A stretch of DNA of 33,649 nt from NCBI GenBank assembly GCA_027364705.1, contig DAHXOU010000045.1:1-33649 (forward strand), read 5' to 3'. This document shows positions 1 through 33,414 of this stretch, in pieces. Within the stretch, counting starts at the first letter, position 1. Every line of letters begins with the position of its first letter. This stretch comes from Nanobdellota archaeon (GTDB lineage: Archaea; Nanobdellota; Nanobdellia; Pacearchaeales; GW2011-AR1). Made by a program: the position numbers and the translations under genes. Under the pieces are notes generated by a model, which had not been told where the DNA came from, did no database searches, and saw only the letters and a program-made list of their open reading frames with translations.

Positions 1-513
1 GTCGGTATAAATGAAACCCTTCAAAGTTTCGCAGGAATTTCGGCGACGAGAATGAACGCACGTTTCATGTCATATTTTTTCAAACAGGATCAGGAAAGAG
101 GAATTCCCCACAAACTAAGAGAATTAAAAAAGTACATAAAAAAATTTGATGTAATATTCTGCGGAGCTCTCGAATATAAACCGCATCAGACATCAGATTC
201 AACTTCCGCACAAATTGCAAAGGCACTGAAAACAGATTTCATAAATTTAAGCGACGTTCAGGGATTATATACAAAAAATCCAAAAAAATACAAAGATGCA
301 AAATTCATTCCTAAGATTTCATGGAAAGAATTTCATAAAATGGCGCACAAGGATAAATTCCAACCTGGACAACATTTTGTTCTTGACCAAACGGCATCTA
401 CAATAATTATGAAAGAAAAAATAACCACATATATTTTAGGCGAAGACATGAAACAATTAGACGCTGTTCTTCACAACCAAAAATTTAAAGGAACACTAAT
501 TGGGAATTTTTAG
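1..513 (+). CDS. pyrH: UMP kinase, archaeal type (5'-truncated by window edge)
   Basis: Frame is open from base 1 (VGINETLQSFAGISATRMNARF...); motifs GISATRMNA, P.QTSDST.A..A, NLSDVQGLY..NPK, PGQHFVLD..A, FKGT match archaeal PyrH. Confidence 0.9.
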   Translation, partial: VGINETLQSFAGISATRMNARFMSYFFKQDQERGIPHKLRELKKYIKKFDVIFCGALEYKPHQTSDSTSAQIAKALKTDFINLSDVQGLYTKNPKKYKDAKFIPKISWKEFHKMAHKDKFQPGQHFVLDQTASTIIMKEKITTYILGEDMKQLDAVLHNQKFKGTLIGNF

Positions 514-540
514 AATAGTTTTCTAAATGACATAAAAAAG

Positions 541-548
541 TTTATATA
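541..548 (+). promoter_or_regulatory. TATA box (with purine-rich BRE) of the leaderless padR operon
   Basis: AAAAAG-TTTATATA ending 24 nt before ATG at 572. Confidence 0.7.
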
Positions 549-554
549 GTAGAT

Positions 555-572
555 TATTACAATATTGTAATA
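555..572. promoter_or_regulatory. Perfect 18-bp palindrome, likely PadR operator
   Basis: TATTACAATATTGTAATA is its own reverse complement and lies between the TATA box and the padR start codon. Confidence 0.7.
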
Positions 573-1102
573 TGACAATATCAAATAAAGAAACAGCACT
601 TTTGGGACTTCTTTCAGAAGGAGCAATGCACGGATATAAAATTGAACAGGAAATTAAAAACAGATCTATGCGGGATTGGACAGAAATCTCTATGTCTTCC
701 GTCTATAAACTGCTTAGAAAGTTGGAAAAAGAAAAATTGATTAAAAGTGATATGAAAGTTTCCAGCAAAAACATTTCTCAAAAAGTTTATTCCATAACTA
801 GCGAAGGTAAAAAGGAATTAAAAGACAAAATAAAAAATCTTGTCAGCGAACCTGAAAAAACATTATCCAGAATTGACTTAGCAACTTCTCATTTAGATCA
901 ATTAACAAGAAAAGAAGCAACTGAATGTCTAAAAAAATACGAGAAGAAACTTAATGAAATGCTGACTTGCTATAAGGAACTTGAAAAATACTTGCAAAAT
1001 TGCAAATATCCAAAGCATAGTCTTGCATTGGCGAGAAGACCCCAATATCTTATTATTGGAGAATTAAATTGGATTAAGGAATATCAAAAGGAAATAAAAT
1101 GA
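572..1102 (+). CDS. PadR family transcriptional regulator
   Basis: LLGLLSEGAMHGYKI...SSVYKLLRKLEKEKLI...KVYSITSEGK wHTH signature with helical C-terminal domain. Confidence 0.92.
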   Translation: MTISNKETALLGLLSEGAMHGYKIEQEIKNRSMRDWTEISMSSVYKLLRKLEKEKLIKSDMKVSSKNISQKVYSITSEGKKELKDKIKNLVSEPEKTLSRIDLATSHLDQLTRKEATECLKKYEKKLNEMLTCYKELEKYLQNCKYPKHSLALARRPQYLIIGELNWIKEYQKEIK

Positions 1103-2328
1103 AAAAAGATAATTTCCAGAATGAGTATGCAATAAAAGCAGGAAAATATATTAATAAATTTTGTAATGTAAAACCAAATAGACAAACAGGTTCTAAAGGA
1201 AATCAGGAAGCAACTAAATTCTTTGCTGAAACAATAAAATCATTTGGATATTCTATCGATACAACTCCGTTTAAATGCCTTGATTACAAAAAAGGAAAAT
1301 CATCTTTACAGCAAGGGAAAAATAAATTTGATGTGAAAATAAGTTCTTATTCGAAAGAATGTAATGTGACCGACGAATTGATAACAGTTTCAACGATAGA
1401 AGAACTTGAAAAGGTACCTTTCACAGGAAAAATATTATTAATGATAGGAGAGATATGCAATGAATCACTTATGCCCAAAAATTTTGTATTTTATAATCCA
1501 GACCATCATAAAAAAATATACAAACTTCTCGAAGACAAAAAACCTGCTGCAATAATTACAGCAATGACAAAGAGACCCGAACTTGTTGGTGCATTATATC
1601 CTTTTCCATTAATTGAAGATGGAGATTTTGATATCCCCATAGTTTATTGTACAGAAGAGGAAGGGAAAAAAATTGCTTCACAAACAGGAAAAATATTTAC
1701 TTTGAAAGCAAACGGAAAAAGAATACCTTCGACCGCAAGCAATATCGTTGCAAAAAAAGGAGACGGTCATAAAAAAATTGTCATTTGTGCACACATTGAT
1801 GCTTATGGAAGTACACCAGGAGCTTCAGACAATGCTTCGGGAACAACAGTATTATTGCTTCTTGCAGAAATGCTTAAGGGAGAGATTACAAAAAATAAAA
1901 TAGAAATCCTAGCATTTAACGGAGAAGATAATTATAGCGTCGGAGGACAAATGGATTATCTTAGAAGATATGAAAAAGAATTTGGTAAAACATTAATTTC
2001 AATAAATATCGACGACGTTGGTTTCAAAAAAGGAAAAACAGCGTACTCTTTTTACGGATGTGAGAAAAAAATGGAGAATGAAGCAGAAGATGTATTCAAA
2101 AAATATAATGGACTTGTTCGTGGTGGAGAATGGTATCAGGGAGACCACATGATTTTTGTCCAGAATAAAATTCCAACAATAGCCGTAACTTCAGACCAGA
2201 CAGTTTACTTAATGAAGAATATAACTCACATAGAAAAAGATATTCCTGAAATATTAAATATGGAAAAAATAGTAGAGGTAGCTTCAGCATTAAAAGAGTT
2301 TATAATAAAGTATGACCAAATAAACTAA
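1099..2328 (+). CDS. M28 family zinc aminopeptidase with PA-like domain
   Basis: Motifs [26 protein letters not shown], late His; ATGA overlap with padR. Confidence 0.9.
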
Positions 2329-2335
2329 AGACAAA

Positions 2336-4591
2336 ATGGATAAGGATAAAATTATCATCAAAGGAGCAAGAACACATAATCTCAAAAATATTTCTTTGGA
2401 GATTCCAAAAAACAAAGTTGTAATATTTACAGGAGTTTCAGGTTCAGGAAAATCATCTCTAGTTTTTGATACCATTTATACTGAAGCGCAAAGACAGTTA
2501 ATAGAAACATTTTCATCTTTTGCTCGAGCAAGAATGCCTAAACTTTCCAAGCCAGATGTAGATGAAATAAGAAACATATCGACGGCAATTGTAATCGACC
2601 AGAAAAGGATGGGAACAAATTTAAGAAGCACTCTCGGAACAGCAACTGAACTTTACACTTATCTCAGACTTTTATTTTCTCGTGCTGGAGATAAATGGAT
2701 TGGTCCTTCATTTTTATTCGGATTTAATCATCCTCTTGGAATGTGTTCAGAATGTAAAGGTTTTGGAAAAAAAATAATTGTAGATGTAGATAAATTAATT
2801 GACAAAGAAAAAACTATTCGTGAAGGGGCAATTACTCACCCAGACCACAAAGTTGGCGGTTGGAACTGGAGAGAAATGGTAGCTACAAATTTATTTGACG
2901 TAGATAAAAAGCTAAAAGATTTTTCAAAAAAAGAGATGAACGATTTACTCTATGCTAAAGCAATTCCAATTGAAAAAAAACACGGAGCAGGAACATACGC
3001 TAAAGTTTTCGAAGGTATTGCAAGAAGACTTGAAAAGGCTTATCTGAATAAAGCAGAGGATGAATTGCCTGCAGAAAAGAAAAATGCATATCAAAAGTAT
3101 TTCATTTATTCAGATTGTGATTCCTGTCATGGCTCAAGAATAAATGAGAAAGCAAGAAGTGTTAAGGTAGAAGGAAAAACAATTCCTGAAGTTGTAAAAA
3201 TGGAATTAACAGAACTGGATAAATATCTAAGCACAATAAAAGGAGACATTGCAAAACCGATGGTTACCAAAATGCGACAGATTCTTTCACATATGATTGA
3301 AATAGGAATCGGATATTTATCTCTGAATCGTCCTGTTGCAACATTGTCTGGTGGAGAAAGTCAGAGAGTAAAAATGGCAAGGCAATTAGATTGCGATCTG
3401 ATAAATTTAATGTACATTTTAGACGAGCCTTCTATCGGTCTTCATCCAAGAGATAATCATAAATTAATTGAAATGCTTGGAAAATTAAGAGATAAAGGAA
3501 ACAGCGTATTTGTCGTCGAGCATGACCCAGATATAATCCAATCTGCAGAGTATATAATTGATATAGGCCCACATGCAGGAACAAAAGGCGGAGAAGTTGT
3601 TTATGCCGGACCTGCAAAAGGAATAAAAGATTCTAAGGGACTGACAGGAGAATTTTTGTCAAAGAAATTAAAAATATATGATAAAAGAAAAGAATGGACA
3701 GATTTCATCGAGATAAAAAATGCAACACTTCATAATTTAAAGAATGTCTCAACAAAAATTCCAAAAGGAATTCTAACTTGCATAACAGGAGTTGCTGGTT
3801 CTGGAAAAAGCAGTTTGATTAATGATTTATTCTTAAAACAAAATCCCGATGCAATTGTAATAAACCAGTCACCTGTTGGAAAATCATCGAGGTCAAATCC
3901 TGCAACTTACGTCGGGATATTTGATAACATAAGAAAAGAATTTGCAAAAGAAACAAAAACAAATCCTTCGTTGTTCAGTTTTAATTCAAAAGGCGCCTGT
4001 CCGAATTGTAAAGGTCTTGGAACAATATCTTATGAAATGAGTTTCCTCGATGAAGTCAAAGTAACCTGTGACGTGTGTCAGGGAAAGAGATACACCGAAG
4101 AAGTTTTGAAATTAAAGTATAACGGAAAAAATATATCAGATATTTTGAATATGACAATTTTTGAATTAAAGAATTTTTTCAAAGACCCAGAAATCAAAAG
4201 AAAACTGCAAGTATTATGCGATGTTGGATTAGAATATCTCGAAATCGGACAGCCACTGAGTACATTATCTGGAGGAGAAGCCCAAAGAATAAAATTAGCA
4301 TCAGAACTCCACAAAAAAGGAAATATTTATGTTATGGATGAACCGACAACAGGATTACACATGTCGGATATTAAAAAATTACTTGAGATAATAAAATCTC
4401 TCATCGACCATAATAATACCGTAGTTGTAATAGAACATAACTTAGATGTTATCAGACACGCAGATTGGGTTATTGACCTTGGCCCAGAAGGCGGAAACAA
4501 AGGCGGAGAAATATTATTTGAAGGAACTCCTGAAGATTTAATCAAAAGCAAAAAAAGTTACACGGCAGAATATCTCAAGAAAGTATTGTAA
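2336..4591 (+). CDS. Class II UvrA (UvrA2/DrrC-like) ABC ATPase
   Basis: GARTHNLKN, two Walker A ([18 protein letters not shown]), two LSGGE signatures, DEP Walker B, CxxC pairs; 751 aa, lacks the UvrB-binding region. Confidence 0.9.
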
Positions 4592-8800: not shown

Positions 8801-8874
8801 AGTTCCCGATAACAGAATGAATTTATAAATGTAATCAATTTGTAAAAATAATATTAGCAGTAGTGTCGTCGCAT

Positions 8875-9885: not shown

Positions 9886-10524
9886 ATGATTCATAATAGA
9901 CATCTTCATAAAAAAATTCATAGAAGAATTCACAGAAAATTAGAAAAGCATAGTCCTGAAGCTGTAAAGAAAGCGAGGAAAATATTTTCTTTTAGATATC
10001 CTAAATTAATTTTCCTTGTTTTAATGATTATATCTGCATATTACATTTTCTCAAGACCATTTATGCATAATTTCCTAAATTCTTTTAAGGAACTTGGAAA
10101 TTTAGGAATTCTCCTCTCAGGAGCATTAACTGCAATCGGATTTACAGCTCCATTTGGGATAGGATTTTTGACTTCAATAGGTAAAGAAAAGATTTTATTC
10201 GCTGCGATAATAGCTTCGATAGGAGCAACCATAGCCGATTTAATTATCTTCAAAACAGTAAAATTTTCTTTTTTGGATGAATTTAAAAAACTTGAAAATA
10301 CTCCTGTGATTAAAGAGATAAAACATTTGGTTAAGAAACATAAACATCTTGCAATCAATCATTATCTACTCTATATTTTTGCAGGCATACTTCTGGCAAC
10401 CCCGCTCCCAGACGAACTTGGAATTTCTATGCTTGCAGGATTAACAACAATAAAACCAATAAAACTGTCTGTAATTTGTTTTCTTCTGCATGGTGCATTT
10501 ATTTCATTGATATTATTGATATAA
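9886..10524 (+). CDS. Multi-pass membrane protein (possibly DedA/VTT-like) with His/basic N-terminus
   Basis: About 5-6 hydrophobic segments, GATIADL..F and TPLPDELG motifs. Confidence 0.7.
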   Translation: MIHNRHLHKKIHRRIHRKLEKHSPEAVKKARKIFSFRYPKLIFLVLMIISAYYIFSRPFMHNFLNSFKELGNLGILLSGALTAIGFTAPFGIGFLTSIGKEKILFAAIIASIGATIADLIIFKTVKFSFLDEFKKLENTPVIKEIKHLVKKHKHLAINHYLLYIFAGILLATPLPDELGISMLAGLTTIKPIKLSVICFLLHGAFISLILLI

Positions 10525-10853: not shown

Positions 10854-12182
10854 ATGAAAAAAAAATTTTTCATAGTAATATGTGCAGTAGTTGTTATTCT
10901 GATTCTTGGTTATTTTTTATATTCAAATACAATGATTAAACCAAAAATAATGCCTGGGGGAGAAGTAGGGTTAAAATTAATTGCAGACAATTTTGTTTCA
11001 CCTGTAGATATTAGATTTTATGATGATTCGGGAAAATTATTCGTAGTTGACAGACCTGGAATAATAAAAATAATAAATGCCGACGGAACAGTACAGAAAG
11101 AACCATTTTTGAATATAACAGATAGAGTAGTTTCATTAAACCCAAGTTATGACGAAAGGGGATTGTTAGGTTTAGCTTTTCATCCTGATTTCAAAAATAG
11201 CGGAAAATTTTATGTTTTTTACAACACTAAATTAAGAACAAGTGCAAGACAAAATTGGGATTCAACAATAAGAATTTCAGAGTTTAATATTCTAGAAGAA
11301 AATAAAGCAGACCCGAAATCAGAAGAAATTTTAATGGAAATTGACCACCCACAAATGAACCACAATGGAGGACAGATTTTATTTGGAAAAGACGGTTACT
11401 TATATATCTCACTCGGTGATGGAGGAAATGCAAATGATGTTGGAGAAGGACACAATCCTGAAACAGGAAATGGTCAAGATACATTTACTCTTCTTGGAAA
11501 AATATTGAGGATTGATGTGAACAACAAAACTTCATTAAGAAATTATGGAATTCCAGCAGACAATCCTTTTAGCGATGGTAAAAATGGATTAAAAGAGATT
11601 TATGCATATGGATTCAGAAATCCATGGAGAATGTCCTTTGATACGGAAACAGGAAATTTGTATGTAGGAGATGCTGGACAAAATATATGGGAAGAAATAG
11701 ATAAAGTTGAAAAAGGAAAAAATTATGGTTGGAATCTAAAAGAAGGAACTCATTGTTTTTCTCCAGAAAGTGCAAATAAATCTCCTGCAAATTGTTCGAA
11801 TGTAGGATATAAAGGCGAAGCATTAATTGATCCTTTTATAGAATATCTAAATGCCCAACAAAAAGGCGGAATTGGACATACTAACGTCGGAGGATTTATG
11901 TACAGAGGAATAGCAATCCCCGAATTTTTTGGAAAGTTTATATTCGGAGATTGGAGTACTGATTTCACAAAGACAGATGGAACATTGTTAATTGCAGAAC
12001 CATCACAGGGATTGTGGAAGATAAAGGAAATAAAAATAGCAAATCGAACTAACGGAAAAATTGGAGAAGCAATACTCGGATTAGGGCATGATGCAGATAA
12101 TGAACTATATGTTCTTACAACAAAAAAAATAGGTCCTGACAGCAATACAGGAAAAGTCTACAAAATAATTCCAAAAAGATAA
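10854..12182 (+). CDS. Membrane-anchored PQQ-dependent glucose/sorbosone dehydrogenase family protein
   Basis: N-terminal TM anchor; ERGLLGLAFHPDF, NHNGG...FG.DGYLYI..GDGG, GKILRID, YGFRNPWR, NYGW. Confidence 0.92.
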   Translation: MKKKFFIVICAVVVILILGYFLYSNTMIKPKIMPGGEVGLKLIADNFVSPVDIRFYDDSGKLFVVDRPGIIKIINADGTVQKEPFLNITDRVVSLNPSYDERGLLGLAFHPDFKNSGKFYVFYNTKLRTSARQNWDSTIRISEFNILEENKADPKSEEILMEIDHPQMNHNGGQILFGKDGYLYISLGDGGNANDVGEGHNPETGNGQDTFTLLGKILRIDVNNKTSLRNYGIPADNPFSDGKNGLKEIYAYGFRNPWRMSFDTETGNLYVGDAGQNIWEEIDKVEKGKNYGWNLKEGTHCFSPESANKSPANCSNVGYKGEALIDPFIEYLNAQQKGGIGHTNVGGFMYRGIAIPEFFGKFIFGDWSTDFTKTDGTLLIAEPSQGLWKIKEIKIANRTNGKIGEAILGLGHDADNELYVLTTKKIGPDSNTGKVYKIIPKR

Positions 12183-12785
12183 TTATTCAAAAACCATTCT
12201 GGCATCTACGACAATTGCTTTGTCTTTTTCAACCATTAAAGGATTAATATCCAGCTCAGTTATGTTAGAATATCTTTTTGATAATCTGCAGAGTTGAAAA
12301 ATATTTTTCTTAATCGCATTTAATTCTTCTTCAGTTATATTTTCCTTGATTTCTTTAATCATATTGACAGCTTCATCATCATTAAGCGGACAGACTCTGA
12401 ATGCAACTTTCTTTATTTGTTCAACACTTGTTCCACCTATTCCGAAAGCAAGAACATGACCAAACTCTTTTGTTGCTTTAAGTCCAAGAATAAATTCTTC
12501 TCCTGAAATTTGTTTCTGCAAAATAACACCTTCAGCATCCTGAATTTTTATAAAAGTATCAAAAATCTTCTCTGCCTGTTCAATAGTTTCTATTTTAGTT
12601 TTAACTCCACCAATTCTGTTCTTATGTAAAATTTTCTGCCCCGAAACTTTCATAACAAGAGGAAAACCCATCTTACCAACAGCGTCAGCAAGTTCACTTT
12701 TATCTTTGATGAAAAGAGTGTCAATAACTTCAAATCCCTGTTCATTCAAAAAAACTTCAGCTTCTTTTTCAGCAAAAATCTTCAT
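12183..12785 (-). CDS. acdB: ADP-forming acetate--CoA ligase beta (ATP-grasp) subunit
   Basis: GFPLVMKV, ILHK..IGGV, EFG....FGIGG, ELDINPL, VDARM. Confidence 0.88.
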   Translation of the reverse strand: MKIFAEKEAEVFLNEQGFEVIDTLFIKDKSELADAVGKMGFPLVMKVSGQKILHKNRIGGVKTKIETIEQAEKIFDTFIKIQDAEGVILQKQISGEEFILGLKATKEFGHVLAFGIGGTSVEQIKKVAFRVCPLNDDEAVNMIKEIKENITEEELNAIKKNIFQLCRLSKRYSNITELDINPLMVEKDKAIVVDARMVFE

Positions 12786-12804
12786 TCTGCAAAAAAGAAA
12801 TTTA

Positions 12805-12814
12805 TTTATATATA
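12805..12814. promoter_or_regulatory. Bidirectional TATA element between divergent acdB and acdA
   Basis: TTTATATATA centred in a 48-bp gap, about 20-30 nt from both start codons. Confidence 0.6.
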
Positions 12815-12833
12815 CTTTTCGCCATTAAATTGT

Positions 12834-14060
12834 ATGTTAAAATTTTTAAGAATAAAAGAGCTGGGAAAATTCCTTACCCCAAAGAACATAGCCGTAATCG
12901 GAGCGTCGGAAATAGAAGGGAAAGTAGGGTATACTTTAATGAGAAAACTTCTAAAGTTTGAAGGAGAAATAATCCCAATAAACATAGAGAAAGAAACAAT
13001 CTTTGAAAAGAAAGCTTACCATTCTGTTCTAGATTACCCAAAAAAGATCGACCTTGCAGTAATTGCAATTCCCTCAACGCATGTAAAAAATGTCCTCGAA
13101 GAATGTGGAAAAAAGAAAATAAAAAATGTAATTATAATCAGTGCAGGTTTTTCAGAATCTGGAAATAAAGAATTAGAAAATGAATTGACGGAGATAACAA
13201 AAAAATATGGTATTAATCTCATCGGACCAAATTGTTTTGGAGTTGCAAATCCTTACTTAAACTTAGACACAACTTTCGCAAATCGTTCTGCAAAAGAAGG
13301 AGACATTGCATTCATAAGTCAGAGCGGAGCATTGTGGAGTTACATTGCTGACGTATCTTCTTCCGACGGTAGTTTAGGATTTTCAGGATTTGTCAGTCTT
13401 GGAAATATGGCAGATTTAGAATTCTGCGATTTCATAGAATATTTTAGCAAGGATAAAAAAACAAAAAAAATAGTTCTTTACATTGAAAGACTAAAAGACG
13501 GAAAAAGATTTATCAAAGTCTGCAAAAAAAGCAAAAAAGAAATAATTGTAATAAAATCAGGAAGAACAAAAACAGGAAGCGAAGCAACTTTAAGTCATAC
13601 AGGAAGTCTTGCAACAGACTATGAAATCTACAAAGGTGCATTCAAACAGGCAGGAGTCAGATTAGAAAGTTCATTCCTTTCTGCATTCGGCATTTCAAAT
13701 TTGAAGATAGAACCCAAAGGGAAAAAAATTGGAATTATCACAAATGCAGGAGGAGCAGGAGCTTTAGTTACTGACCATCTTGTTGAAGAAGGATATGAAG
13801 CACTTCCGCCAGTTGATGTTCTGGGAACCGCTCTTGCTAAAGATTACAAAAATGCTTTTGAAGATTTGAAAGACAAAGTTGATTCTCTGATAATAATATT
13901 GACACCACAGAGCATGTCTCAGCCAGATGAACTTGCAAAAGAAATTGTCAAATTCTCGAAGGTAAAACCAGTAATTGCTTTTTTGCTCGGGGCAGAATCA
14001 ATAAAGAAAGCAAAAAGCATTTTAGAAAAAAATAAGATTCCCTGTATTACCAACATATAA
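12834..14060 (+). CDS. acdA: ADP-forming acetate--CoA ligase alpha (CoA-binding) subunit
   Basis: AVIGAS, IISAGFSE, GPNCFG, SQSGAL, SLGN.AD, catalytic SHTGSLA, TNAGG.G. Confidence 0.9.
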   Translation: MLKFLRIKELGKFLTPKNIAVIGASEIEGKVGYTLMRKLLKFEGEIIPINIEKETIFEKKAYHSVLDYPKKIDLAVIAIPSTHVKNVLEECGKKKIKNVIIISAGFSESGNKELENELTEITKKYGINLIGPNCFGVANPYLNLDTTFANRSAKEGDIAFISQSGALWSYIADVSSSDGSLGFSGFVSLGNMADLEFCDFIEYFSKDKKTKKIVLYIERLKDGKRFIKVCKKSKKEIIVIKSGRTKTGSEATLSHTGSLATDYEIYKGAFKQAGVRLESSFLSAFGISNLKIEPKGKKIGIITNAGGAGALVTDHLVEEGYEALPPVDVLGTALAKDYKNAFEDLKDKVDSLIIILTPQSMSQPDELAKEIVKFSKVKPVIAFLLGAESIKKAKSILEKNKIPCITNI

Positions 14061-14062: not shown

Positions 14063-14719
14063 ATGAACAAGTTATCTGACAGAATTGACGCAGTAATGAA
14101 TATTCTTAGAAAAAAATTTCCAATAAGCAAAACCACTCTCAATAAAATGAGAAAAAATCCAAATGCTTTCAAAATTTTAATTTCTTGTCTTCTATCATTA
14201 AGAACACAGGACAAAAATACAGAAATAGCTTCAGGAAGATTATTTGCCGTCGCGGATACTCCAAAAGAAATTATCGCGCTTCCTATGAGAAAACTGGAAA
14301 AATTAATCTTCTCGTCAGGACATTACAGAAAAAAAGCCAGAACATTAAAACATGTTTCAAAAGTTTTACTTGAAAGATTCGACGGCAAAGTTCCTAAAAC
14401 AAGAGAAGAATTAATGAGCATAAAAGGAATCGGTCCAAAAACAGCGAATATAGTTTTAGCTTTTGCTTTCGGACAAAAAGTTCTTCCGATTGACACGCAC
14501 TGTCACAGAATTCCAAATCGCCTCGGTTGGGTAAAAACAAAAACTCCTGAACAAACAGAAGCAGAACTAAACAAAATTCTTCCAAAAAAATATTGGTCCG
14601 ATTTTAATTCAATTTTCATTCAATTTGGAAAAACAATTTGTCAGCCAGTTTCTCCTTTTTGCTCGACGTGCCCGATAAACAAATATTGCTCAAGAATTGG
14701 TGTTGTGAGAAGCAGATAA
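14063..14719 (+). CDS. nth: Endonuclease III (HhH-GPD, 4Fe-4S)
   Basis: LLSLRTQD, GIGPKTAN, IDTHCHRI, C-x6-C-x2-C-x5-C cluster motif. Confidence 0.95.
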   Translation: MNKLSDRIDAVMNILRKKFPISKTTLNKMRKNPNAFKILISCLLSLRTQDKNTEIASGRLFAVADTPKEIIALPMRKLEKLIFSSGHYRKKARTLKHVSKVLLERFDGKVPKTREELMSIKGIGPKTANIVLAFAFGQKVLPIDTHCHRIPNRLGWVKTKTPEQTEAELNKILPKKYWSDFNSIFIQFGKTICQPVSPFCSTCPINKYCSRIGVVRSR

Positions 14720-14746: not shown

Positions 14747-14917
14747 ATGATGATAGAAAATTATGTAGAGTCCGTTAGAACAATTCCAATTAAAATAGAA
14801 AAGAATCCTAAGTTTTACAAAATTATCGACGATTATATAGAAAAGTCAACAGAGCTTCTTTTCAGAAAAAAGGAAAAAATTGAATCAGATGATTTTTATG
14901 ACAGAGCAGTTTACTAA
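14747..14917 (+). CDS. Small hypothetical protein (56 aa, below ORF-track cutoff)
   Basis: MMIENYVESVRTIPIKIEKNPKFYKIIDDYIEKSTELLFRKKEKIESDDFYDRAVY fills the gap; TTTTATAT at about 14720. Confidence 0.5.
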   Translation: MMIENYVESVRTIPIKIEKNPKFYKIIDDYIEKSTELLFRKKEKIESDDFYDRAVY

Positions 14918-22608: not shown

Positions 22609-22989
22609 TTATATTTTATCAATTCTTTCCATAGAACAATCAAGCATGTTTTTGTATATTTTGCCGACTTGCAAATCATTATAGGACTCAATATTCTGAA
22701 CACCTGTTTTTCGAAATTTAGGGAATATCAAAAGAGCTTTTCTTTTTGCTTCACTGTCGTTGCCGAAACTATTTTCATTTATTCTTGAATTTGCCCAAAG
22801 ATTGTAAAATTCCTCATATCTTTTCTGAACATTCTCTTTTCTTGGAGGAGTTTTCAATTTATTCCTTTCAAAATCCTTTTCTGCTAATATGCTAAGATAA
22901 ACTAAGTTAGCAATTTTATGTCCAACACTTCCAGTTGGATCTTTTTCAACATCATACTCTTTGTATAATCTTTCAAGTAAAGTCATCAT
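22609..22989 (-). CDS. Hypothetical protein
   Basis: 126-aa ORF between fen and polB, shares the palindromic TATA at 23012-23019. Confidence 0.6.
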   Translation of the reverse strand: MMTLLERLYKEYDVEKDPTGSVGHKIANLVYLSILAEKDFERNKLKTPPRKENVQKRYEEFYNLWANSRINENSFGNDSEAKRKALLIFPKFRKTGVQNIESYNDLQVGKIYKNMLDCSMERIDKI

Positions 22990-23041
22990 AATAAAATCCT
23001 CAAACGAGAATATTTAAATCTTATTAATGGCTGGATTAAAC

Positions 23042-25501
23042 ATGAAAATTGACTTCATTCCCGTTGATTATGACTATTTTGATTTTGAAGGTAGGAACTA
23101 TGCAAAAATAATCGGAAGAGACAAAAATGGAAAAAGAGTTTGCATAATTGATTCCTGTGATATATATTTCTGGGCAATTCTAAAAGAAAAGTTAAGTCAA
23201 AAAGAAATACAGAAACTTCAGGAAAAAATTGAAAAAATACAATTAGATGTTAAGGGAAGAAAAACCCGAGTTGAAAAAACAGAACTGCATGATAAAAAAT
23301 TTCTCGGACAGAATGTAAAAGCATTGAAAATATTCGCAACAAATTACAAAGACTTGCACGACATTGCCGACGAACTTGGAATGCCCGAAATAGAAAAGCG
23401 CCGAGGTTATGATATCGGTTTCATAAGTCATTATATCATCGAGAAAAAATTAAACCCCTTATGTTGGTATGAAATAGAAGGAGAGGTTCTGAATAACAGT
23501 TTAGATTTCGGAGGAATAGATTCTGCATTAAACGTCGATTTGTGTATCAAGACATTTTCAATAAAACAATTAGATAAAGAAAGTTTCACACCAAAAGTTC
23601 TAGCATTCGATGTCGAGGCAGACGAACTGAAAATTGGCGAAGGAGAAATTCTTATGATTTCATTTGTATCTGAAAATTTCAAGAAAGTAATAACTTGGAA
23701 AAAGCATAAAGAAATCCCGAATGTCGAATATGTAAAAGATGAAGCTGAACTTTTAGAAAAGTTCGCAGAAACAATAAAAAAAATTTCCCCCGATTTCCTC
23801 GTCGGATATTTCACTGATGGATTTGATTTTCCTTATATAAAAGCACGAGCAAATAAGTTTAAAGTTAAATTAGATATTGGGTTGGACGGAAGCCAGCCGA
23901 AATTCTCGAGAGGCGGTGCAAAAGTATTCAGCACAGCAAAAGTTGATGGAATTGTTCACATCGATTTATTGCGATTTATTGAAACAGCTTATTCACAATA
24001 TATGTCTTCGGAAACTTTGTCGCTGAATGAAGTTGCAAAAGAATTTCTCGGAGATACAAAAAAAGAGCACGAGCATAAACATTCTTCAAAAATCTCAGGC
24101 GACGAATGGACAAAATATTTTGAATACAATCTACACGATTCAGTTTTAACTTACAAGATTTTTGAAAAAATCTGGCCAGACTTAATTGAGTTCACAAGAG
24201 TTATGCACGAACCAGTTTTTGATGTTTCAAGAAATGGAATGTCAAGAAACGTCGAAGATTATATTATTCATAACCTAGAAAGATTTAATGAGATTCCCGA
24301 AAAACGTCCGACTTACGACGAGATTGGAGAAAGAAAAGGAAGAGAAAAATATGTCGGAGCTTTTGTTTTCGAACCAACAGCAGGATTGTATGAAAACTTG
24401 GGAATATTTGATTTCACAAGTTATTGGCCGAGTATAATTGTAACATTTAATCTTTCAAAATCGACGATGCTGGAGAAAAAAGAAAAAAATTCCTTTGAAG
24501 TTGATTTGGAAGATAAAAAAGTTTATTTCTCAAAAGAGCAGGGATTTTTTCCGCAAATGCTTCAGGAAATAATTGAGAAAAGAAAGAAATACAAAAAAGA
24601 ACTCGCTCAGAAATTTGATGTTATAAAAAAAGCAAGGAGCAATGCGTTCAAACTTTTAGCAAATGCTTCTTATGGATACATGGGATTTTTCGGAGCAAGA
24701 TATTATTGCCCAGAAGCTTCTGCATCAGCGACGTCGATAAGTAGGGATTTCATAAAAAAAATAATCGACAAGATAAATAATGAAGGTTACAAAACAATCT
24801 ACTCAGACACAGATTCTATTGCATTTTTGTTAAACAAAAATTCTAAAGAGAAAACTCTTGATTTTTTGAAAAAATTAAACTCTGAACTTCCGGGAGTGAT
24901 GGAACTTGAACATGAAGACTTTTACAAAAGAGGAATTTGGGTTACAAAAAGAACAGGCGAGTTTGGCGCAAAGAAAAAATATGCTCTGATAACTGACAAT
25001 GGAAAATTAAAAATTCGCGGTTTTGAAACGGTCAGAAGAGATTGGTGTATTCTGGCGAGAAATACACAGAATAAAATTTTGAGAATGGTATTGGAAGACG
25101 GAAATGAAAAAAAAGCGTTTGAATACATAAAAGAAATTATAAAAGAAGTTAAAGAAAGAAAAATCGATTTGAAAGATATGACAATCAGAACTCAATTAAA
25201 AAAACTCATAACCGAATATAAATCAATTACTCCGCACGTCGTCGCGGCACAAAAAATGGTAGAAAGAGAAATTCCCGTCGATATGGGGAGTTTGATTGAA
25301 TATTATATCTCAGAAACAGAAGGCAAGAAAAAATTAGTCCGTGATAAAGTAAAACTTATTGACGAAAAAGGAGAATATGACATAAAATATTATCTAGAAC
25401 ATCAGATTCTTCCAGCAGTTGAAAATATTTTTCAGGTTTTTAATATCGACATAAATGAAATTGCAAAAGACAAAAAACAAAGAACATTAGGAGAATTTTA
25501 A
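23042..25501 (+). CDS. polB: Family B DNA polymerase with 3'-5' exonuclease
   Basis: Exo FDVE, FDFPY, YN..DS; Pol DFTSYWPSII, KLLANASYGY, YSDTDS, KKYA, RGFE..RRDW; PIP box QRTLGEF; start 23042 preferred over 23027 from TATA spacing. Confidence 0.96.
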   Translation: MKIDFIPVDYDYFDFEGRNYAKIIGRDKNGKRVCIIDSCDIYFWAILKEKLSQKEIQKLQEKIEKIQLDVKGRKTRVEKTELHDKKFLGQNVKALKIFATNYKDLHDIADELGMPEIEKRRGYDIGFISHYIIEKKLNPLCWYEIEGEVLNNSLDFGGIDSALNVDLCIKTFSIKQLDKESFTPKVLAFDVEADELKIGEGEILMISFVSENFKKVITWKKHKEIPNVEYVKDEAELLEKFAETIKKISPDFLVGYFTDGFDFPYIKARANKFKVKLDIGLDGSQPKFSRGGAKVFSTAKVDGIVHIDLLRFIETAYSQYMSSETLSLNEVAKEFLGDTKKEHEHKHSSKISGDEWTKYFEYNLHDSVLTYKIFEKIWPDLIEFTRVMHEPVFDVSRNGMSRNVEDYIIHNLERFNEIPEKRPTYDEIGERKGREKYVGAFVFEPTAGLYENLGIFDFTSYWPSIIVTFNLSKSTMLEKKEKNSFEVDLEDKKVYFSKEQGFFPQMLQEIIEKRKKYKKELAQKFDVIKKARSNAFKLLANASYGYMGFFGARYYCPEASASATSISRDFIKKIIDKINNEGYKTIYSDTDSIAFLLNKNSKEKTLDFLKKLNSELPGVMELEHEDFYKRGIWVTKRTGEFGAKKKYALITDNGKLKIRGFETVRRDWCILARNTQNKILRMVLEDGNEKKAFEYIKEIIKEVKERKIDLKDMTIRTQLKKLITEYKSITPHVVAAQKMVEREIPVDMGSLIEYYISETEGKKKLVRDKVKLIDEKGEYDIKYYLEHQILPAVENIFQVFNIDINEIAKDKKQRTLGEF

Positions 25502-27948: not shown

Positions 27949-28839
27949 ATGACACTCACATCAAGTCAAAAACAAAAAAGTATCAGGGCAGGAGAAATTG
28001 CTAAAGAAGTAAAAAAATGGATAAAACCCCAAATAAAAAAAGGAATGACTCTTTTAGAAATTGCAGAAAAGATTGAAGATAAAATAAGAGAACTAAAAGG
28101 GAAACCGGCTTTTCCAACAAACCTTTCAATAAATGAAATTGCTGCACATTACACTCCTTCTTACAGTGATGAAACAAAAGCAAATGGTTTATTAAAAGTA
28201 GATTTTGGAATTCACGTCGACGGCTGGATTGCAGACACAGCTTTTTCAGTTGATTTAGAAAACTCAGAAGAAAATAAAAAATTAATTGAAGCAAGCAAAG
28301 AAGCTTTGAAAAATGCAATTAAAGAAGTTGGAAAAAAAAGCTCACTTGGAGAAATTGGAAGAGTTATTCAAGAAACAATTGAATCTAAAAAATTTTCTCC
28401 GATAATAAATCTAACAGGACATCAGATGGAAGAGTATGAACTTCACGGAGAACAGACAATTCTAAATATAGAAAATTCAAGACAGGAAATTCTTGAAGAA
28501 GGTTTGTATGCAATTGAACCATTCGCAACAACAGGTTCTGGAAAAATTTACGAAGGAAAACAATCAGGAATTTATATTTTAATTAATGGAAAAAATGTCA
28601 GAAGCCCTGAAGCAAGAAAAGTTCTGGATTTTATCGGCGATGAATATCAGACTCTGCCATTCTGCTCAAGATGGATTGTAAAAAAATTTGGAACAAAATC
28701 CCTCTTCGCATTGAAACAATTAGAAGACAACGGAAATCTTCATCAATACCCGCAATTAGTTGAAGCATCTCACGCAAAAGTTTCACAAGCAGAAAACACA
28801 ATTCTCGTAGATGGCGGAGTTATTGTAACAACAGAATAA
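27949..28839 (+). CDS. map: Methionine aminopeptidase type II
   Basis: AFPTNLS.NE.AAHYTP, KVDFG.H.DG.IADTA, NLTGH, AIEPFAT, LPF..RW, SQAE.T. Confidence 0.97.
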   Translation: MTLTSSQKQKSIRAGEIAKEVKKWIKPQIKKGMTLLEIAEKIEDKIRELKGKPAFPTNLSINEIAAHYTPSYSDETKANGLLKVDFGIHVDGWIADTAFSVDLENSEENKKLIEASKEALKNAIKEVGKKSSLGEIGRVIQETIESKKFSPIINLTGHQMEEYELHGEQTILNIENSRQEILEEGLYAIEPFATTGSGKIYEGKQSGIYILINGKNVRSPEARKVLDFIGDEYQTLPFCSRWIVKKFGTKSLFALKQLEDNGNLHQYPQLVEASHAKVSQAENTILVDGGVIVTTE

Positions 28840-28841: not shown

Positions 28842-29030
28842 CTATATTCCGTATTTCTTTGAAACTTCAGATTCACAAGTAGGGCAACAACCATCACTAA
28901 TATTTTTGTAAAGATTCAAACTCAGCTCATAAAGTTCAGGGTCTTCTTTTTCAGACAACCATCTATCTTTATCGTCGATTAAAATACTTTTACAATAAGC
29001 ACATCTTGTTAATATTTTTTCAATTGTCAT
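28842..29030 (-). CDS. Small zinc-finger-like microprotein
   Basis: CAYCK...W...ISDGCCPTC, two CxxC pairs. Confidence 0.68.
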   Translation of the reverse strand: MTIEKILTRCAYCKSILIDDKDRWLSEKEDPELYELSLNLYKNISDGCCPTCESEVSKKYGI

Positions 29031-29099: not shown

Positions 29100-31403
29100 C
29101 TATCCTAAATAACTATTATCCATAGGAATTGCTGCTTTAGCAGATTTCAGATAAGTTTCTTCAATTTTTTTGTATAAATCAATAGTTGACTTTGTAACAC
29201 TTGGTTTTATTTTTTTCAGCGCTTCTTCAAAATGTTTTTTCTTTACTTGTTTGGAATTAATATCTTCTCTCAATGCAAAATAAGCTGCTTCTCTTGCAAC
29301 TGCTTCCAAATCAGCACCAGTATATCCGCTTGTATCTTTTGCTATTTCTTTCAAATCAACATCTTTTGCAAGAGGCATTTTCTTAGTGTGAATTCCCAAG
29401 ATATTCAGTCTTCCGTCGTCTTCTGGAGCATTTACTAAAAGTATTTTATCAAATCTTCCAGGCCTTAATAATGCAGTGTCCAACATATCAGGACGATTAG
29501 TTGCTCCGATAACAATAACATCATTCAAATCTTCAAGCCCATCCATCTCAGCAAGCATTTGATTCAAAACTCTTTCAGTAACTTTAGTTCCTGTTTCCAT
29601 TCCTCTCCGTCCTGCAAGTGAATCAATCTCGTCGAAGAAAACAACGCAAGGTGCAACTTGTCGAGCTCTCTCGAAAATTTTTCTCATTCCTTCTTCAGAT
29701 TTACCAACCCACATACTCAATAATGAAGGTCCTTTAACTTGAATAAAATTAGCTTCTGATTCTTTAGCAACTGCTTTAGCCAAAAGAGTTTTACCTGTTC
29801 CAGGAGGCCCGTAAAGTAAAATACCTCTCGAAGGTCTTATTCCCATTCTCTCAAAACTATCAGCATATTTCATCGGCCATTCAACTGCTTCTTTCAATTC
29901 TTGTTTAACACTATCTAATCCTCCGACGCTATTCCATTCAACATTTGGAGTTTCAACTAAAACTTCTCTCATTGCACTTGGTCTGACTGTCTTTAATGCA
30001 TCAACAAAATCTTCATGATTGACAATTAATTTTTCAAGAATTTCAGCAGGTATCTTTTCTTCTCCTTCAAGTTTCATTTGAGGAAGAATTTTTCTCAAAA
30101 CAATAATCGCAGCTTCTTTAGTTAAAGATTCTAAATCAGCACCAACAAAACCATGAGTCAGAGAAGCAATCTCGTCGAGATTTACTTTCTTATCCATCGG
30201 CATGTTTCTTGTGTGAATTTTCAAAACCTGAAGTCTTCCTCCTTTTCCTGGAACACCAACTTCAAGTTCTCTGTCAAATCGTCCTGGTCTTCTCAAAGCA
30301 GCGTCGAGAGCATTGGGTCTGTTAGTTGCACCAATTACAACAACCTTTCCTCTACTTTTCAGACCATCCATCATAGTCAGCAACTGTGAAACAACTCTCC
30401 TCTCAACTTCTCCCTGAACATCTTCTCTCTTAGGAGCAATAGCATCAATCTCGTCGATAAAAATAATCGCAGGAGCAGTCTTCTCAGCTTCTTCAAAAAT
30501 ATCTCTTATCTTTTTTTCAGACTCTCCGTAAAACTTCGACATAATTTCTGGGCCATTAAGTAAAATAAAATTTGCCTCCGATTCATTTGCAACTGCTTTA
30601 GCCAAAAGAGTTTTACCAGTTCCAGGAGGTCCGTGAAGTAAAATTCCTTTTGGAGGTTCAATTCCCAATCTCTCAAAAATCTCTGGATGTTTTAATGGGA
30701 TTTCGACAAGCTCTCTGATTTTTTTAATTTCATCAGTTAAACCACCTATATCTTCATAAGTAATCTCAGGAATTTTCTCGTCGGAAAGTTCAACTGCTTT
30801 TGAATTTAAAGTAACTTCGGTATTTTCAGAAATGTAAACCGGCTGAGAAGGATTTGTGCTGATAACGACAAATTTAATCTGAGTTATTCCTCCACCGAGA
30901 TTTCCAAAACCCATTCCTCCAAAAAGTTCTCCTAAATTTCCGAATATATCATCCATATCACCAAACTCTTCAGACATCAAATCTCTTCTCCTTTGAACTC
31001 CACCAAGAACAACAATGTCTCCTTTCAAAACTGCTCTACCAAGAAGTCCTCTTCGCAAATTGTCAGAATCTGCTTGAATCATAATTCCTTTTTGTGCAGG
31101 AGCAATTACAATTTTTTTAGCTTCCTTAACTTCTGCTTTGCTAATTGTTACTAAATCTCCAATTCCTGTTCTTGCATTTTTTCTAAGAATACCGTCGATT
31201 CTGATAATTCCTTCACCAAGATCTGCAGGGTAAGCTCTGTCAACGATTGCAATAGTCTCTCTGTTTCCTTTAATGATTATTCTGTCTCCTCTTCGCAAAT
31301 CTAATTGTCGCATTATTTCAGAATCTATTCTTGCAATTCCTTTATACGCATCGTCCTGCATTGCTTCGACGACCTTAAGTTGAATTTGTTTTTCTTTTGC
31401 CAT
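29100..31403 (-). CDS. cdc48: Cdc48/VAT AAA+ ATPase
   Basis: N domain, two GPPGTGKT Walker A, IDEID/FDEID Walker B, two ALxRPGRFD motifs. Confidence 0.98.
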
Positions 31404-31404
31404 T

Positions 31405-31764: not shown

Positions 31765-31772
31765 GAGTATAA

Positions 31773-31800: not shown

Positions 31801-31814
31801 GGTTGAAAGGGGTT

Positions 31815-31863
31815 AATGTGTGTGTACACATTTAGTATACACATAACATATATACTATATAAA
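31815..31863 (-). promoter_or_regulatory. TATA box plus two inverted repeats (candidate operators)
   Basis: AATGTGT-N4-ACACATT (31815-31832), TAGTATA-N11-TATACTA (31833-31857), minus-strand TTTATATA (31856-31863). Confidence 0.6.
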
Positions 31864-31906
31864 TATTTCCGTGATGGAGTAATAATAAAAAATTGATTAA
31901 AGATTA

Positions 31907-32347
31907 TTAACCAAGTCTTATCTCTTTTATTTTTTCAAGAATTTCTTTTCTCTTGTCGCTGGTAAGTCTTTTATCGAGGATAGGATAGAAATCATCTATC
32001 TCTCTCCCTTCATGTTTAAATAAAAGTTCTCGGAGAATTGAAGTGTTCGGTCTTATTCCATCGCCAATTTCTTCATCAAAATTATCTATTATTTTTCTTA
32101 TATCTTTATGGTCGTTGAGTAAACCCTGAATCTGATTAAGTTCTTTTTTGTTGGTTGAATCAACAACAGGAAAAATATTTTCCTCCTCAATAAAAAGATG
32201 TTTGTTAAGATTCCATTTGAACAAATTAAACAATTTTACAAATTGGTAAATATCATCTTCAGAAATTTTTTCAGAATCTTCAAGAAATTTATTTACAATT
32301 TGGTGTTGCTTTAACATTGCTAATGTTATTGGTCCCATTTCTGTCAT
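31907..32347 (-). CDS. Hemerythrin-like (HHE) domain protein
   Basis: H...HLFIEEENIFP...H...HEGRE...YP two HxxxE repeats. Confidence 0.88.
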   Translation of the reverse strand: MTEMGPITLAMLKQHQIVNKFLEDSEKISEDDIYQFVKLFNLFKWNLNKHLFIEEENIFPVVDSTNKKELNQIQGLLNDHKDIRKIIDNFDEEIGDGIRPNTSILRELLFKHEGREIDDFYPILDKRLTSDKRKEILEKIKEIRLG

Positions 32348-32397
32348 ACCGAATATAAGATTGAAAGATTTATAAAATTATATTCCCAAAGAGTCTG

Positions 32398-33063
32398 ATG
32401 AATTTTAAAAAGGGGTTTTTGAGTTTTAAGAATGGTTTTAAGAAATTCTGGTTTCTGTTATGGAAAGATAACAGTCTGAAAGGCTGGATTTTTTCTCTGG
32501 TATTTTTATTCGTGTTCATAAAATTTATTTTTTTCCCATTGTTAAGTCTTTTGACTGGAACTGCTTTGCCTCTTGCAATAGTCGAATCGTGCAGTATGTA
32601 TCACGAAGGAAATTTCTTCTCAAATTTTAATGATTGGTATGACGGGCATGAATCAAAATACGCTGGAATAAATATAACCAAAGAACAATTTGAAGATTTC
32701 TCTCTCCGACGAGGATTTAGTAAAGGAGATATATTATTTATCATCGGAGCAAATACTGAAAAATTAAAAATTGGTGATATAATTTTATTTAATTCAGGAA
32801 ATCAGGGAACCCCAATAATTCACAGAATAATTAAGATAAGAGAAGAAAACGGAGAAAAAATTTTCACAACAATGGGAGACAACAATAATCAAATATTAAT
32901 TCCAAGTAATAATCCAGGGGGAGTTGATGAACGTGAAATAAACTCAGACCAAGTCGTCGGAAAAGCAGTATTTAGATTAACTCCGTGGTTTGGCTGGGCA
33001 AAGCTTATATTTTTTGAAGGATTAAAACCAGAATCTGAAAGAGGATTCTGTAAAGAGAATTAG
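32398..33063 (+). CDS. sec11: Signal peptidase I, archaeal Sec11 type
   Basis: TM anchor, V.S.SM, KGD, GDII.F, PIIHR, T.GDNN, GK. Confidence 0.9.
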   Translation: MNFKKGFLSFKNGFKKFWFLLWKDNSLKGWIFSLVFLFVFIKFIFFPLLSLLTGTALPLAIVESCSMYHEGNFFSNFNDWYDGHESKYAGINITKEQFEDFSLRRGFSKGDILFIIGANTEKLKIGDIILFNSGNQGTPIIHRIIKIREENGEKIFTTMGDNNNQILIPSNNPGGVDEREINSDQVVGKAVFRLTPWFGWAKLIFFEGLKPESERGFCKEN

Positions 33064-33105
33064 GAAAGTTTTTAAATAAAAATAAGGTAAAGAACAAATA
33101 ACAAA

Positions 33106-33414
33106 ATGGATTTTTGTCCCAAGTGTGGTGCGGTCCTTGTTCAGAAAAAAACAAGGGAAGGATGTCCTCGATGTAGTTACACAGCTAAGGGAAAAATAAA
33201 AATATGTTCATCAGAAAAAATTGAAGACAAAGGAGAAGGAATAGAAGTGATAAAAAAAGACGTGCAAGCATTCCCTATCGTTTCTGAAAAATGCAAAAAA
33301 TGCGGACATGATAAAGCATATTTCTGGACAGTTCAAACACGTTCTGGCGACGAAGCAGAAACAAAATTCTTCAGATGTGTCAAGTGTGAACATACTTGGC
33401 GAGAATATCGCTGA
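33106..33414 (+). CDS. tfs: Transcription factor S
   Basis: FCPKCG, CPRC, CKKCGH..A.FW..QTRSGDE..T.FF.C..C.H.WREY. Confidence 0.96.
   Translation: MDFCPKCGAVLVQKKTREGCPRCSYTAKGKIKICSSEKIEDKGEGIEVIKKDVQAFPIVSEKCKKCGHDKAYFWTVQTRSGDEAETKFFRCVKCEHTWREYR

Follow-up and report, generated by a model that had tools for sequence, protein, structure and literature searches.

In one family of small-genome, DPANN-type archaea, CGWCG (W being A or T) forms a highly iterated palindrome comparable to the highly iterated palindrome 1 (HIP1) of cyanobacteria. It came to notice in contig DAHXOU010000045.1 of a Nanobdellota archaeon (order Pacearchaeales; assembly GCA_027364705.1), all 33,649 nucleotides of which form the window analyzed here; this window is the entire contig C1 of the genome bin designated G000 (628,064 bases in 49 contigs, GC content 0.32, 89.6% complete). 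The trait is accessory-like and patchy, ranging from strong to absent between congeneric species. Site-specific lowering of CGWCG loss by an accessory factor, acting as a neutral drive, is tentatively preferred as its cause.

CGWCG as the iterated unit

A sequence-only reading of the window had counted 37 copies of the hexamer CGACGA/TCGTCG, well above chance, and had described a non-palindromic motif. A recount on both strands gave the same 37 copies at the same start coordinates, against 3.54 expected from 100 dinucleotide-preserving shuffles (standard deviation (SD) 1.65, maximum 9), none of which reached 37; for CGWCG, 67 sites were found against 7.76 expected (SD 2.74, maximum 13), and again none of the 100 shuffles reached the observed number. 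Enrichment extends beyond the window: the G000 genome contains 945 CGWCG sites (1.5 per kb), 408 of them as the hexamer, distributed over 45 of the 49 contigs, and the four contigs without the motif are each no longer than 2.8 kb. CGWCG is the most over-represented 5-mer of this genome, with an observed-to-expected ratio (O/E) of 6.84, 8.60 and 2.31 under first-, second- and third-order Markov models, respectively.

The hexamer is not the unit, because CGACGA occurs at 1.01 times its maximal-order Markov expectation and all of the hexamers containing CGWCG lie at 0.72–1.11; the flanking bases carry no information, and the sixth base of CGACGA is therefore outside the signal. The description as non-palindromic does not hold either, since the two forms of CGWCG are mutually reverse complementary and each occurs in excess (462 CGACG and 483 CGTCG on the plus strand). 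Pairs of CpG dinucleotides are enriched, 4.74-fold, at a spacing of 3 alone, and 945 of the 1102 such pairs have a W centre; CGSCG is enriched only 1.8–2.0-fold. Half-sites outside full sites are close to expectation (1058 against 1146), and overlapping sites, CGWCGWCG, fall below the chain-rule prediction both in G000 (19 against 73.9) and in the related genome G014 (76 against 170.9). CGWCG behaves as a discrete symmetric site. Words one mutation away from CGWCG have O/E values of 0.85–1.65 under first- and second-order Markov models, and a depletion of the neighbors with T in place of C, which Vsr-type over-correction would produce, was looked for and not found (TGACG/CGTCA, 0.93–1.35; CGATG/CATCG, 1.17–1.65; CGACA/TGTCG, 1.46); this fits a lowered loss of sites better than a conversion of neighboring words into sites.

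A separate group of words, CCTGC/GCAGG, CAGGA/TCCTG and ACAGG/CCTGT, exceeds first-order expectation 2.3–3.1-fold in all five genomes that were analyzed whole, with a maximal-order O/E of about 1.1. Enriched and non-enriched genomes share this trait of composition, which is family-wide and unrelated to CGWCG.

Excess beyond codon usage and composition

Open reading frames (ORFs) were called crudely in G000 (670 ORFs covering 91% of the genome), so that the regions referred to here as spacers include small genes and RNA genes. Two null models, each of 40 rounds, were applied to the coding sequences: a shuffle of synonymous codons within genes, and a permutation of third bases among contexts sharing the amino acid, the first two bases and the next base, which keeps all dinucleotides. 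The coding sequences contain 896 CGWCG sites, against 198.3 under the synonymous shuffle (SD 12.6, maximum 230) and 316.4 under the dinucleotide-exact shuffle (SD 15.5, maximum 349). The sequence-only reading had named, as refuting outcomes, a loss of the enrichment under a codon-pair- or dinucleotide-preserving null or outside the window; the excess persists under the dinucleotide-preserving null and throughout the genome. Most of the coding sites lie in two frames, xxC GWC Gxx (624, against 148–234 under the nulls) and xCG WCG (254, against 41–66), both of which are enriched 3–6-fold, and 18 lie in the third.

As had been noticed in the window, the motif is written through otherwise disfavored synonymous codons (CTC, 0.05 of Leu; GAC, 0.28 of Asp; GTC, 0.13 of Val; GAG, 0.17 of Glu), and the choice of codon depends on both neighboring bases jointly. 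The share of GAC among Asp codons is 0.65 between a preceding C and a following G, versus 0.22–0.27 elsewhere, and the corresponding values for GTC are 0.49 and 0.09–0.15; after NCG, the usage of ACG is 0.405 versus 0.056 otherwise, and that of TCG is 0.438 versus 0.052. The spacers hold 49 sites against 11.0 expected (O/E 4.45). A comparison of core and accessory genes, which the sequence-only reading had proposed, gave similar densities, with an O/E of 7.5 in core genes (those conserved in four relatives), 5.9 in genes without homologues, and values within this range in genes conserved in some of the relatives; the position of the motif within genes is flat. An excess found in two frames, in both orientations, in spacers and on 45 of the 49 contigs, and exceeding codon-aware nulls, is a DNA-level signal, and the force behind it works at the level of the DNA duplex, not of protein or mRNA. 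This excess should be considered when codon-usage or CpG statistics of DPANN genome bins are read.

Restriction-type palindromes show a pattern of their own in the five genomes. GATC is strongly avoided in G000, G007, G014, G016 and G018 (O/E 0.06–0.30), as is CTAG (0.13–0.44), and the avoidance of TCGA varies (0.18 in G007, 0.40 in G016, and 0.72–0.76 in the CGWCG-rich genomes); the GATC and TCGA values suggest past or present restriction pressure of the GATC and TCGA types.

Distribution among relatives

Four relatives of G000, namely G014, G018, G007 and G016 (GC content 0.32–0.35; 67–72% protein identity to G000), were analyzed whole. CGWCG is the top 5-mer of G014 (1702 sites, 2.67 per kb, O/E 7.05) and also of G018, which belongs to a different genus (289 sites, O/E 5.96); G007 contains 146 sites (O/E 3.05), and the congener G016 contains 43 (0.08 per kb, O/E 1.28). 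Under the synonymous and the dinucleotide-exact nulls, respectively, the coding counts are 1612 against 415 and 691 in G014, 256 against 110 and 110 in G018, 123 against 145 and 78 in G007, and 28 against 97 and 36 in G016. CGWCG is about 25 times more common in G000 and G014 than in G016, whereas other CpG-containing words are about 2-fold apart.

For a wider survey, the count of CGACGA divided by that of its reversed control, AGCAGC, was used as a proxy, which was calibrated on the five whole genomes only and gave the same rank order as the O/E. The survey covered 41 relatives and, separately, 151 genomes of the family (one per genus, plus G000); these genomes are related by kinship and were counted without phylogenetic correction. 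The ratio was at least 1.5 in 7 of the 41 relatives, all of them among the 25 that belong to the same family, and no high ratio occurred in the 16 genomes from eight other families of the order, where all values were 0.39 or lower. In the family sample, a ratio of at least 1.5 was found in 15 of 151 genomes, the highest being those of G164 (10.0), G149 (8.7) and G046 (7.0). Judged by the identity of the family B DNA polymerase to that of G000, the closest genomes are G009 and G014 (83%), both enriched; at 74–78% identity, the high-ratio genomes G004 and G012 stand alongside the low-ratio genomes G015, G011, G006 and G016.

Within G000, the motif is scarce on contigs C7 (0.24 per kb), C28 (0.25 per kb) and C43 (0.63 per kb), compared with 1.5 per kb overall. 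C7 and C28, which carry a type I and a type II methyltransferase gene, respectively, show signs of imported DNA, and their low density is what gradual amelioration of such DNA would give; the density of CGWCG marks native versus recently imported DNA in these genomes. In G014, CGWCG is two to three times less dense in the region C3:1-100000 than in the rest of the chromosome contig, and this region is rich in sugar-modifying genes (glycosyltransferases, C-methyltransferases, epimerases, NeuB and an aminotransferase).

Retention, spacing and polarity of sites

The turnover of sites was followed in 450 orthologous segments of G000 and G014 aligned codon by codon. Among 1639 contexts in which the amino acids are conserved and a frame-2 motif is allowed, 196 sites are shared, 89 are present in G000 only and 261 in G014 only. 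Retention was measured in a cleaner design than that of the first comparison (see below), in which all synonymous states are equally available in identical amino-acid contexts. From G000 to G014, the motif state shows an excess retention of 0.55 in NNY-GAY-G contexts, compared with 0.15–0.28 for the other three states and 0.13–0.28 for the same states before A or T; in NCN-ACN contexts its value is 0.59 versus 0.06–0.37 for eight other states, and in NCN-TCN contexts 0.44 versus 0.01–0.23 for five other states. The reverse direction, from G014 to G000, is weaker (0.27), because G014 holds more sites. Among the G007 sites in compatible contexts, 16 of 35 coincide with G000 sites. The sites are kept in place, and are not merely re-created at random.

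The spacing of sites in G014 is slightly clumped rather than regular (coefficient of variation 1.20). No replichore polarity was found along the 623-kb contig of G014, where the central A or T tracks the gene strand in all 25-kb bins; on the coding strand of this genome, CGACG outnumbers CGTCG by about 1.5 to 1. The analogy with uptake- or Chi-type signals is not supported: the central base depends on gene strand instead of replichore, and a word of 5 bp is too short to serve as a specific tag for uptake. DNA uptake sequences (DUS) and uptake signal sequences (USS), as well as Chi and the FtsK-orienting polar sequences (KOPS), are asymmetric and 8–12 nt long; DUS and USS, words of 9 nt or more, tell self from foreign DNA, and Chi and KOPS are skewed by replication strand. 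CGWCG resembles these elements in occurring about once per kb and in being written into genes by codon choice, but differs in its length of 5 bp, its symmetry and its lack of replichore polarity.

Methyltransferase and repair genes

The gene content lends no support to a methyltransferase coupled to biased repair, which the sequence-only reading had offered as a possible cause: no C5 or N4/N6 methyltransferase, Vsr, MutS or NucS tracks the trait. All absences given here refer to metagenome bins that are 76–92% complete, and mean that a gene was not found. Neither a C5 methyltransferase (PF00145) nor Vsr was found in G000, and no PF00145 match exceeded the cut-off in G000, G004, G009, G012, G014, G021 or G024. 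Such enzymes exceed the cut-off in 8 of the 41 relatives and are clear and full-length in G008, G011, G013, G015, G018 and G027; their carriers are mostly low-ratio genomes, and none of the seven high-ratio genomes among the 41 has one, so that a C5 enzyme was rejected as the agent. PF01555 matched two genes of G000, one for a 555-amino-acid DNA methyltransferase on C28 and one for a Trm11-like tRNA enzyme on C29, and a type I HsdM-like gene is located on C7. The C28 enzyme was rejected, since it has no orthologue in the enriched relatives searched (its only homologue, in G008, is 33% identical) and its own contig has 1 site in 3,964 bases; the HsdM-like gene was rejected because it sits on the motif-poor C7. 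The C28 enzyme belongs to an island (C28:343-3182, locus L003) composed of this N6/N4 methyltransferase, in which motif I precedes a "DPPH" motif IV in permuted order, a 90-amino-acid winged-helix protein and a 237-amino-acid ORF without a family, possibly an endonuclease.

G014, the most enriched of the fully analyzed genomes and nearly closed, has no recognizable DNA methyltransferase of families PF00145, PF01555, PF02384 or PF02086, and no recognizable Vsr, MutS or NucS. For PF01555, G014 and G012 yielded only the Trm11-like match, and G024 and G018 yielded none; PF02384 and PF02086 were not found in G014 or G016, and gave no match over the cut-off in G012. Vsr was found in none of the six enriched genomes tested (G000 and five others), and neither MutS nor, over the cut-off, NucS/EndoMS was found in G000, G014, G018, G007 or G016. 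In the family sample, PF01555 at E ≤ 1e-15 is present in 10 of the 15 high-ratio genomes versus 83 of 151 overall. The other 5 high-ratio genomes lack it, which, like the negative result for G014, departs from the expectation of a cognate orphan methyltransferase wherever such a word is abundant (Elhai, 2015).

Several repair genes were also considered and rejected. Loss of uracil-DNA glycosylase (UDG) looked plausible among the 41 relatives, where none of 13 UDG-positive genomes has a ratio above 0.22, but in the 151-genome sample UDG occurs in 5 of 15 high-ratio genomes and in 62 of 151 overall. Of the five whole genomes, only G016 has UDG, and each has one endonuclease III-like glycosylase; together with the absence of MutS and NucS matches, this makes a puzzling gene set for mismatch and uracil handling. 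The HhH-GPD glycosylase encoded at 14063..14719 of the window is found in enriched and non-enriched relatives alike, and a second, Mig-like HhH-GPD glycosylase is excluded by the single HhH-GPD copy in each of the five genomes. An AlkD-like glycosylase and a Cas4-like PD-(D/E)XK nuclease, shared by G000, G014 and G018 and missing from G016, proved to be common to the family (20 of 24 and 23 of 24 genomes), and G016 lacks them because it lacks the whole region, including gyrA and aIF2-gamma. A cluster at 572-4591 of the window, which encodes a PadR regulator, an M28 peptidase and a 751-amino-acid UvrA2-like ATPase (with the UvrA DNA-binding domain, and shorter than canonical UvrA), was dismissed because it was not found in the enriched G018; its products are 76–88% identical to those of G014, and it was likewise not found in G007 or G016. 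Two other window ORFs are common to G014 only, 14955-15554 (a membrane protein by its sequence) and 22609-22989 (small, and without a Pfam family).

In G014, 636 ORFs were called, 220 of which have no homologue in G016; 135 of these (at least 150 amino acids, unsplit) were scanned with Pfam and 66 of the 135 with PADLOC. The Pfam matches include a Cas4-like nuclease, a DinG-like helicase, an AlkD-like glycosylase, two ExoIII-family proteins, a Holliday-junction-resolvase-like nuclease and DisA, and many of the ORFs have no family. A regular-expression search for methyltransferase motifs I and IV returned 12 ORFs, and the only one with both motifs, a 184-amino-acid enzyme, is also present in G016 and was set aside.

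Possible origins of the excess

The tentatively preferred explanation is that the complete 5-bp CGWCG, once present, is kept, and that sites would accumulate in this way to 1.5–2.7 per kb wherever coding allows. A symmetric, probably dimeric protein that recognizes CGWCG would lower the rate at which the site loses its four C:G pairs, for instance if deamination or mismatch damage inside CGWCG were corrected toward C:G, and the sites would build up by neutral drive, not through a benefit that each copy confers. We infer a protein that repairs or protects the site specifically, and drive in place of selection; the trait would be determined by an accessory factor that species acquire and lose, and not by a classical set of C5 or N4/N6 methyltransferase, Vsr and MutS. 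Several points weigh against this explanation. The first, less controlled test of site sharing gave odds ratios of 9.0 and 7.9, within the range of the control states (2.9–16.5). Positional conservation is equally expected from purifying selection on functional sites, and the deficit of overlapping sites agrees with occupancy or selection no less well than with repair, and may also be explained by coding constraints. No restriction-modification or mismatch-nuclease candidate emerged from the 135 G014 ORFs scanned with Pfam or the 66 scanned with PADLOC, no gene profiled across the relatives tracks the trait, and an enzyme that is plasmid-borne or unbinned would be missed.

Selection for function is a somewhat less probable explanation, in which CGWCG would be the binding site of an abundant DNA-binding protein (for nucleoid organization, segregation or a mark of self DNA) and would be maintained by purifying selection. 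The retention of the motif in position between G000 and G014, which surpasses that of any other synonymous state, the under-representation of overlapping and hence redundant sites, and the presence of the trait in G014, where no methyltransferase was found, are all consistent with it, and Xu et al. (2018; PMC5861425) argue for the same conclusion in the case of HIP1. However, the congener G016 has the same gene set and lifestyle with only 43 sites, core genes, orphan genes and spacers have similar densities, and the spacing is slightly clumped instead of regular. In population-genetic terms, selection would have to act effectively on each of 1000–1700 sites of little individual use in symbionts with tiny genomes, and no candidate binding protein tracks the trait.

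A CGWCG methyltransferase acting together with methylation-directed or Vsr-like repair, with genes that are unrecognized, unbinned (on a plasmid or virus) or supplied by the host, is unlikely. CGWCG is a known restriction-modification specificity: Hpy99I of Helicobacter pylori reads it as a dimeric enzyme (PMC2699513), and M.Hpy99I is a beta-class m4C methyltransferase (PMC3936762). A dimeric reader of the restriction-modification type is therefore a natural suspect, but none was found in the bins, where searches with family profiles detected no such gene pair in the enriched genomes; furthermore, a restriction site is expected to be avoided, whereas these archaea have accumulated CGWCG. Variants of HIP in cyanobacteria go with cognate methyltransferases (PMC4390886), patchiness is typical of restriction-modification genes, and the share of PF01555 carriers among high-ratio genomes, given above, also agrees with a methyltransferase. 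In addition, it has been proposed that a DPANN symbiont may methylate the DNA of its host through cytoplasmic bridges (PMC11001535), and such enzyme traffic between the two cells makes a trans-acting enzyme conceivable. Against this stand the enriched genomes in which the searches failed, namely G014, G012 (nothing over the cut-off for PF00145, PF02384 or PF02086, PF01555 only as the Trm11-like match, and no Vsr) and G024 (no match to PF00145, PF01555 or Vsr), as well as G061, G110 and G164, which lack PF01555 at E ≤ 1e-15, the only family tested in these three, and of which G164 has the highest ratio of all. The predominance of C5 enzymes in low-ratio genomes, the lack of Vsr in all six enriched genomes tested and the undepleted TGWCG/CGWCA and CGWTG/CAWCG also oppose the model, and the mechanism of Elhai (2015) needs MutS/MutL, of which MutS was found in none of the five genomes.

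Finally, that codon usage, codon-pair bias, the CpG level or avoidance of GATC, CTAG or CCGG yields the excess as a by-product, with no force specific to CGWCG, is extremely improbable: CpG is indeed less depleted in enriched genomes (O/E 0.88 and 0.76, versus 0.43–0.50), GATC avoidance does shift Asp to GAC before C, and higher-order nulls do absorb part of the raw excess, leaving 2.31-fold over the third-order model, but none of the 40 shuffles that keep amino acids and every dinucleotide comes near the observed count, enrichment of this word extends to two frames, both orientations and the spacers, the 25-fold difference from G016 is not shared by other CpG words, G018 reaches its O/E of 5.96 with a low CpG value (0.50), and the codon-aware nulls in relatives such as G014 agree.

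A wider proposition, about which we are doubtful, is that neither DNA methylation nor canonical mismatch repair is needed for iterated palindromes to arise, and that an undescribed sequence-specific maintenance factor both writes and keeps CGWCG in a scattered subset of these archaea, in which MutS, NucS and methyltransferases would be lacking. Such a factor could be encoded by unannotated ORFs common to the enriched genomes, or supplied by the host across the cytoplasmic bridges reported for DPANN symbionts. Were this true, a family with enriched and non-enriched congeners would be the simplest natural system for the agent of a HIP-like motif.

Comparison with known systems

The analogy with HIP1 drawn by the sequence-only reading is apt, in that CGWCG is a palindrome and the top 5-mer, lies in several frames and in spacers, and has sites conserved in place. 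HIP1 (GCGATCGC) and the alternate HIPs of cyanobacteria (Elhai, 2015, PMC4390886; Xu, Lawrence and Durand, 2018, PMC5861425) are likewise G+C-rich palindromes that are hyper-abundant throughout the genome, in several gene frames and in spacers; they too are present or absent between related genomes and positionally conserved, and function and origin are unexplained in both cases. HIP1 sites are described as periodic along the chromosome, at 10–90 kb, and as enriched 15- to 300-fold (PMC5861425), compared with about 7-fold for CGWCG. The cyanobacterial model rests on a methyltransferase and MutS/MutL (PMC4390886), whereas neither a cognate methyltransferase nor MutS was found with CGWCG. Further differences are that CGWCG has only 5 bp and a degenerate centre, and that it is archaeal and occurs in genomes of about 0.6 Mb.

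In Escherichia coli, very-short-patch repair by Dcm and Vsr raises the abundance of CCWGG through a repair bias toward C:G. CCWGG and CGWCG are both 5-bp degenerate palindromes of the restriction-modification type with a W centre; however, no C5 methyltransferase or Vsr was found with CGWCG, its one-transition neighbors are not depleted, and its enrichment is far stronger.

No description of CGWCG over-representation was found in full-text literature searches, which were judged largely by title; among the papers listed as mentioning CGWCG, the titles concern Helicobacter enzymes or methods. The origin of genome-filling short palindromes has been open since HIP1, and the leading model needs a cognate methyltransferase and repair of the MutS/MutL type. 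A pattern of the same kind occurs here in archaeal genomes of 0.5–0.6 Mb for which the searches yielded neither; it varies from strong to missing among congeners of about 70% protein identity and is strong in about a tenth of the 151-genome family sample. With about 600–700 genes per genome, these archaea offer a small comparative system in which the agent might be named, or methylation shown to be unneeded.

Placement of the motif in the window

The 67 window sites are spread over positions 44 to 33352, as 33 CGACG and 34 CGTCG on the plus strand, and 37 of them form CGACGA/TCGTCG hexamers. Sixty-three lie inside the 36 main ORFs, 48 in frame xxC GWC Gxx, 13 in xCG WCG and 2 in CGW CGx; the sites outside these ORFs are 8867..8871, 14827-14831, 28973-28977 and 44-48, the last of which falls within a 5′-open amino-acid-kinase ORF (1-513). 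Overlapping CGWCGWCG doubles occur four times, at 2010..2017, 24729-24736, 25237-25244 and 28215-28222. The gene content is that of archaeal housekeeping, and includes PheRS, RFC, FEN1, family B polymerase, Cdc48, TFS, RNase P p30, an endonuclease III-like glycosylase and the UvrA2-like ATPase. The densest carrier is the family B DNA polymerase gene (23027..25501, plus strand; Pfam DNA_pol_B and DNA_pol_B_exo1), with 12 sites, or 4.8 per kb. The gene for the Cdc48/AAA+ ATPase (29100..31403, minus strand) carries 9 sites, every one of them in frame xxC GWC Gxx; both of its Walker B boxes use GAC GAG, as had been noticed earlier, the first (IIFIDEID) being spelled ATC GAC GAG at the motif copy 30452..30456 and the second (VVFFDEID) TTC GAC GAG at 29630..29634, both on the minus strand. 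The HhH-GPD glycosylase gene at 14063..14719 (plus strand), the sole gene of this type in the genome, contains 3 copies.

Among the family B polymerases of the relatives, those of G008 (C93:9184-12840, 1231 amino acids) and G031 (C3:105482-109120, 1217 amino acids) are interrupted within one long open frame by an insertion between query residues of about 596-643, which is intein-like in appearance, and the G014 orthologue has one in-frame TGA. Two loci of the window have homologues in G016 (59–66% identity) but none in the closer G014, G007 and G018: an ORF without a Pfam family at 9886-10524, and an ADP-forming acyl-CoA synthetase pair (ATP-grasp_5 and CoA-ligase domains) at 12183-14060. A glucose/sorbosone dehydrogenase gene that adjoins this pair, at 10854-12182, has no homologue in G014, G007, G018 or G016.

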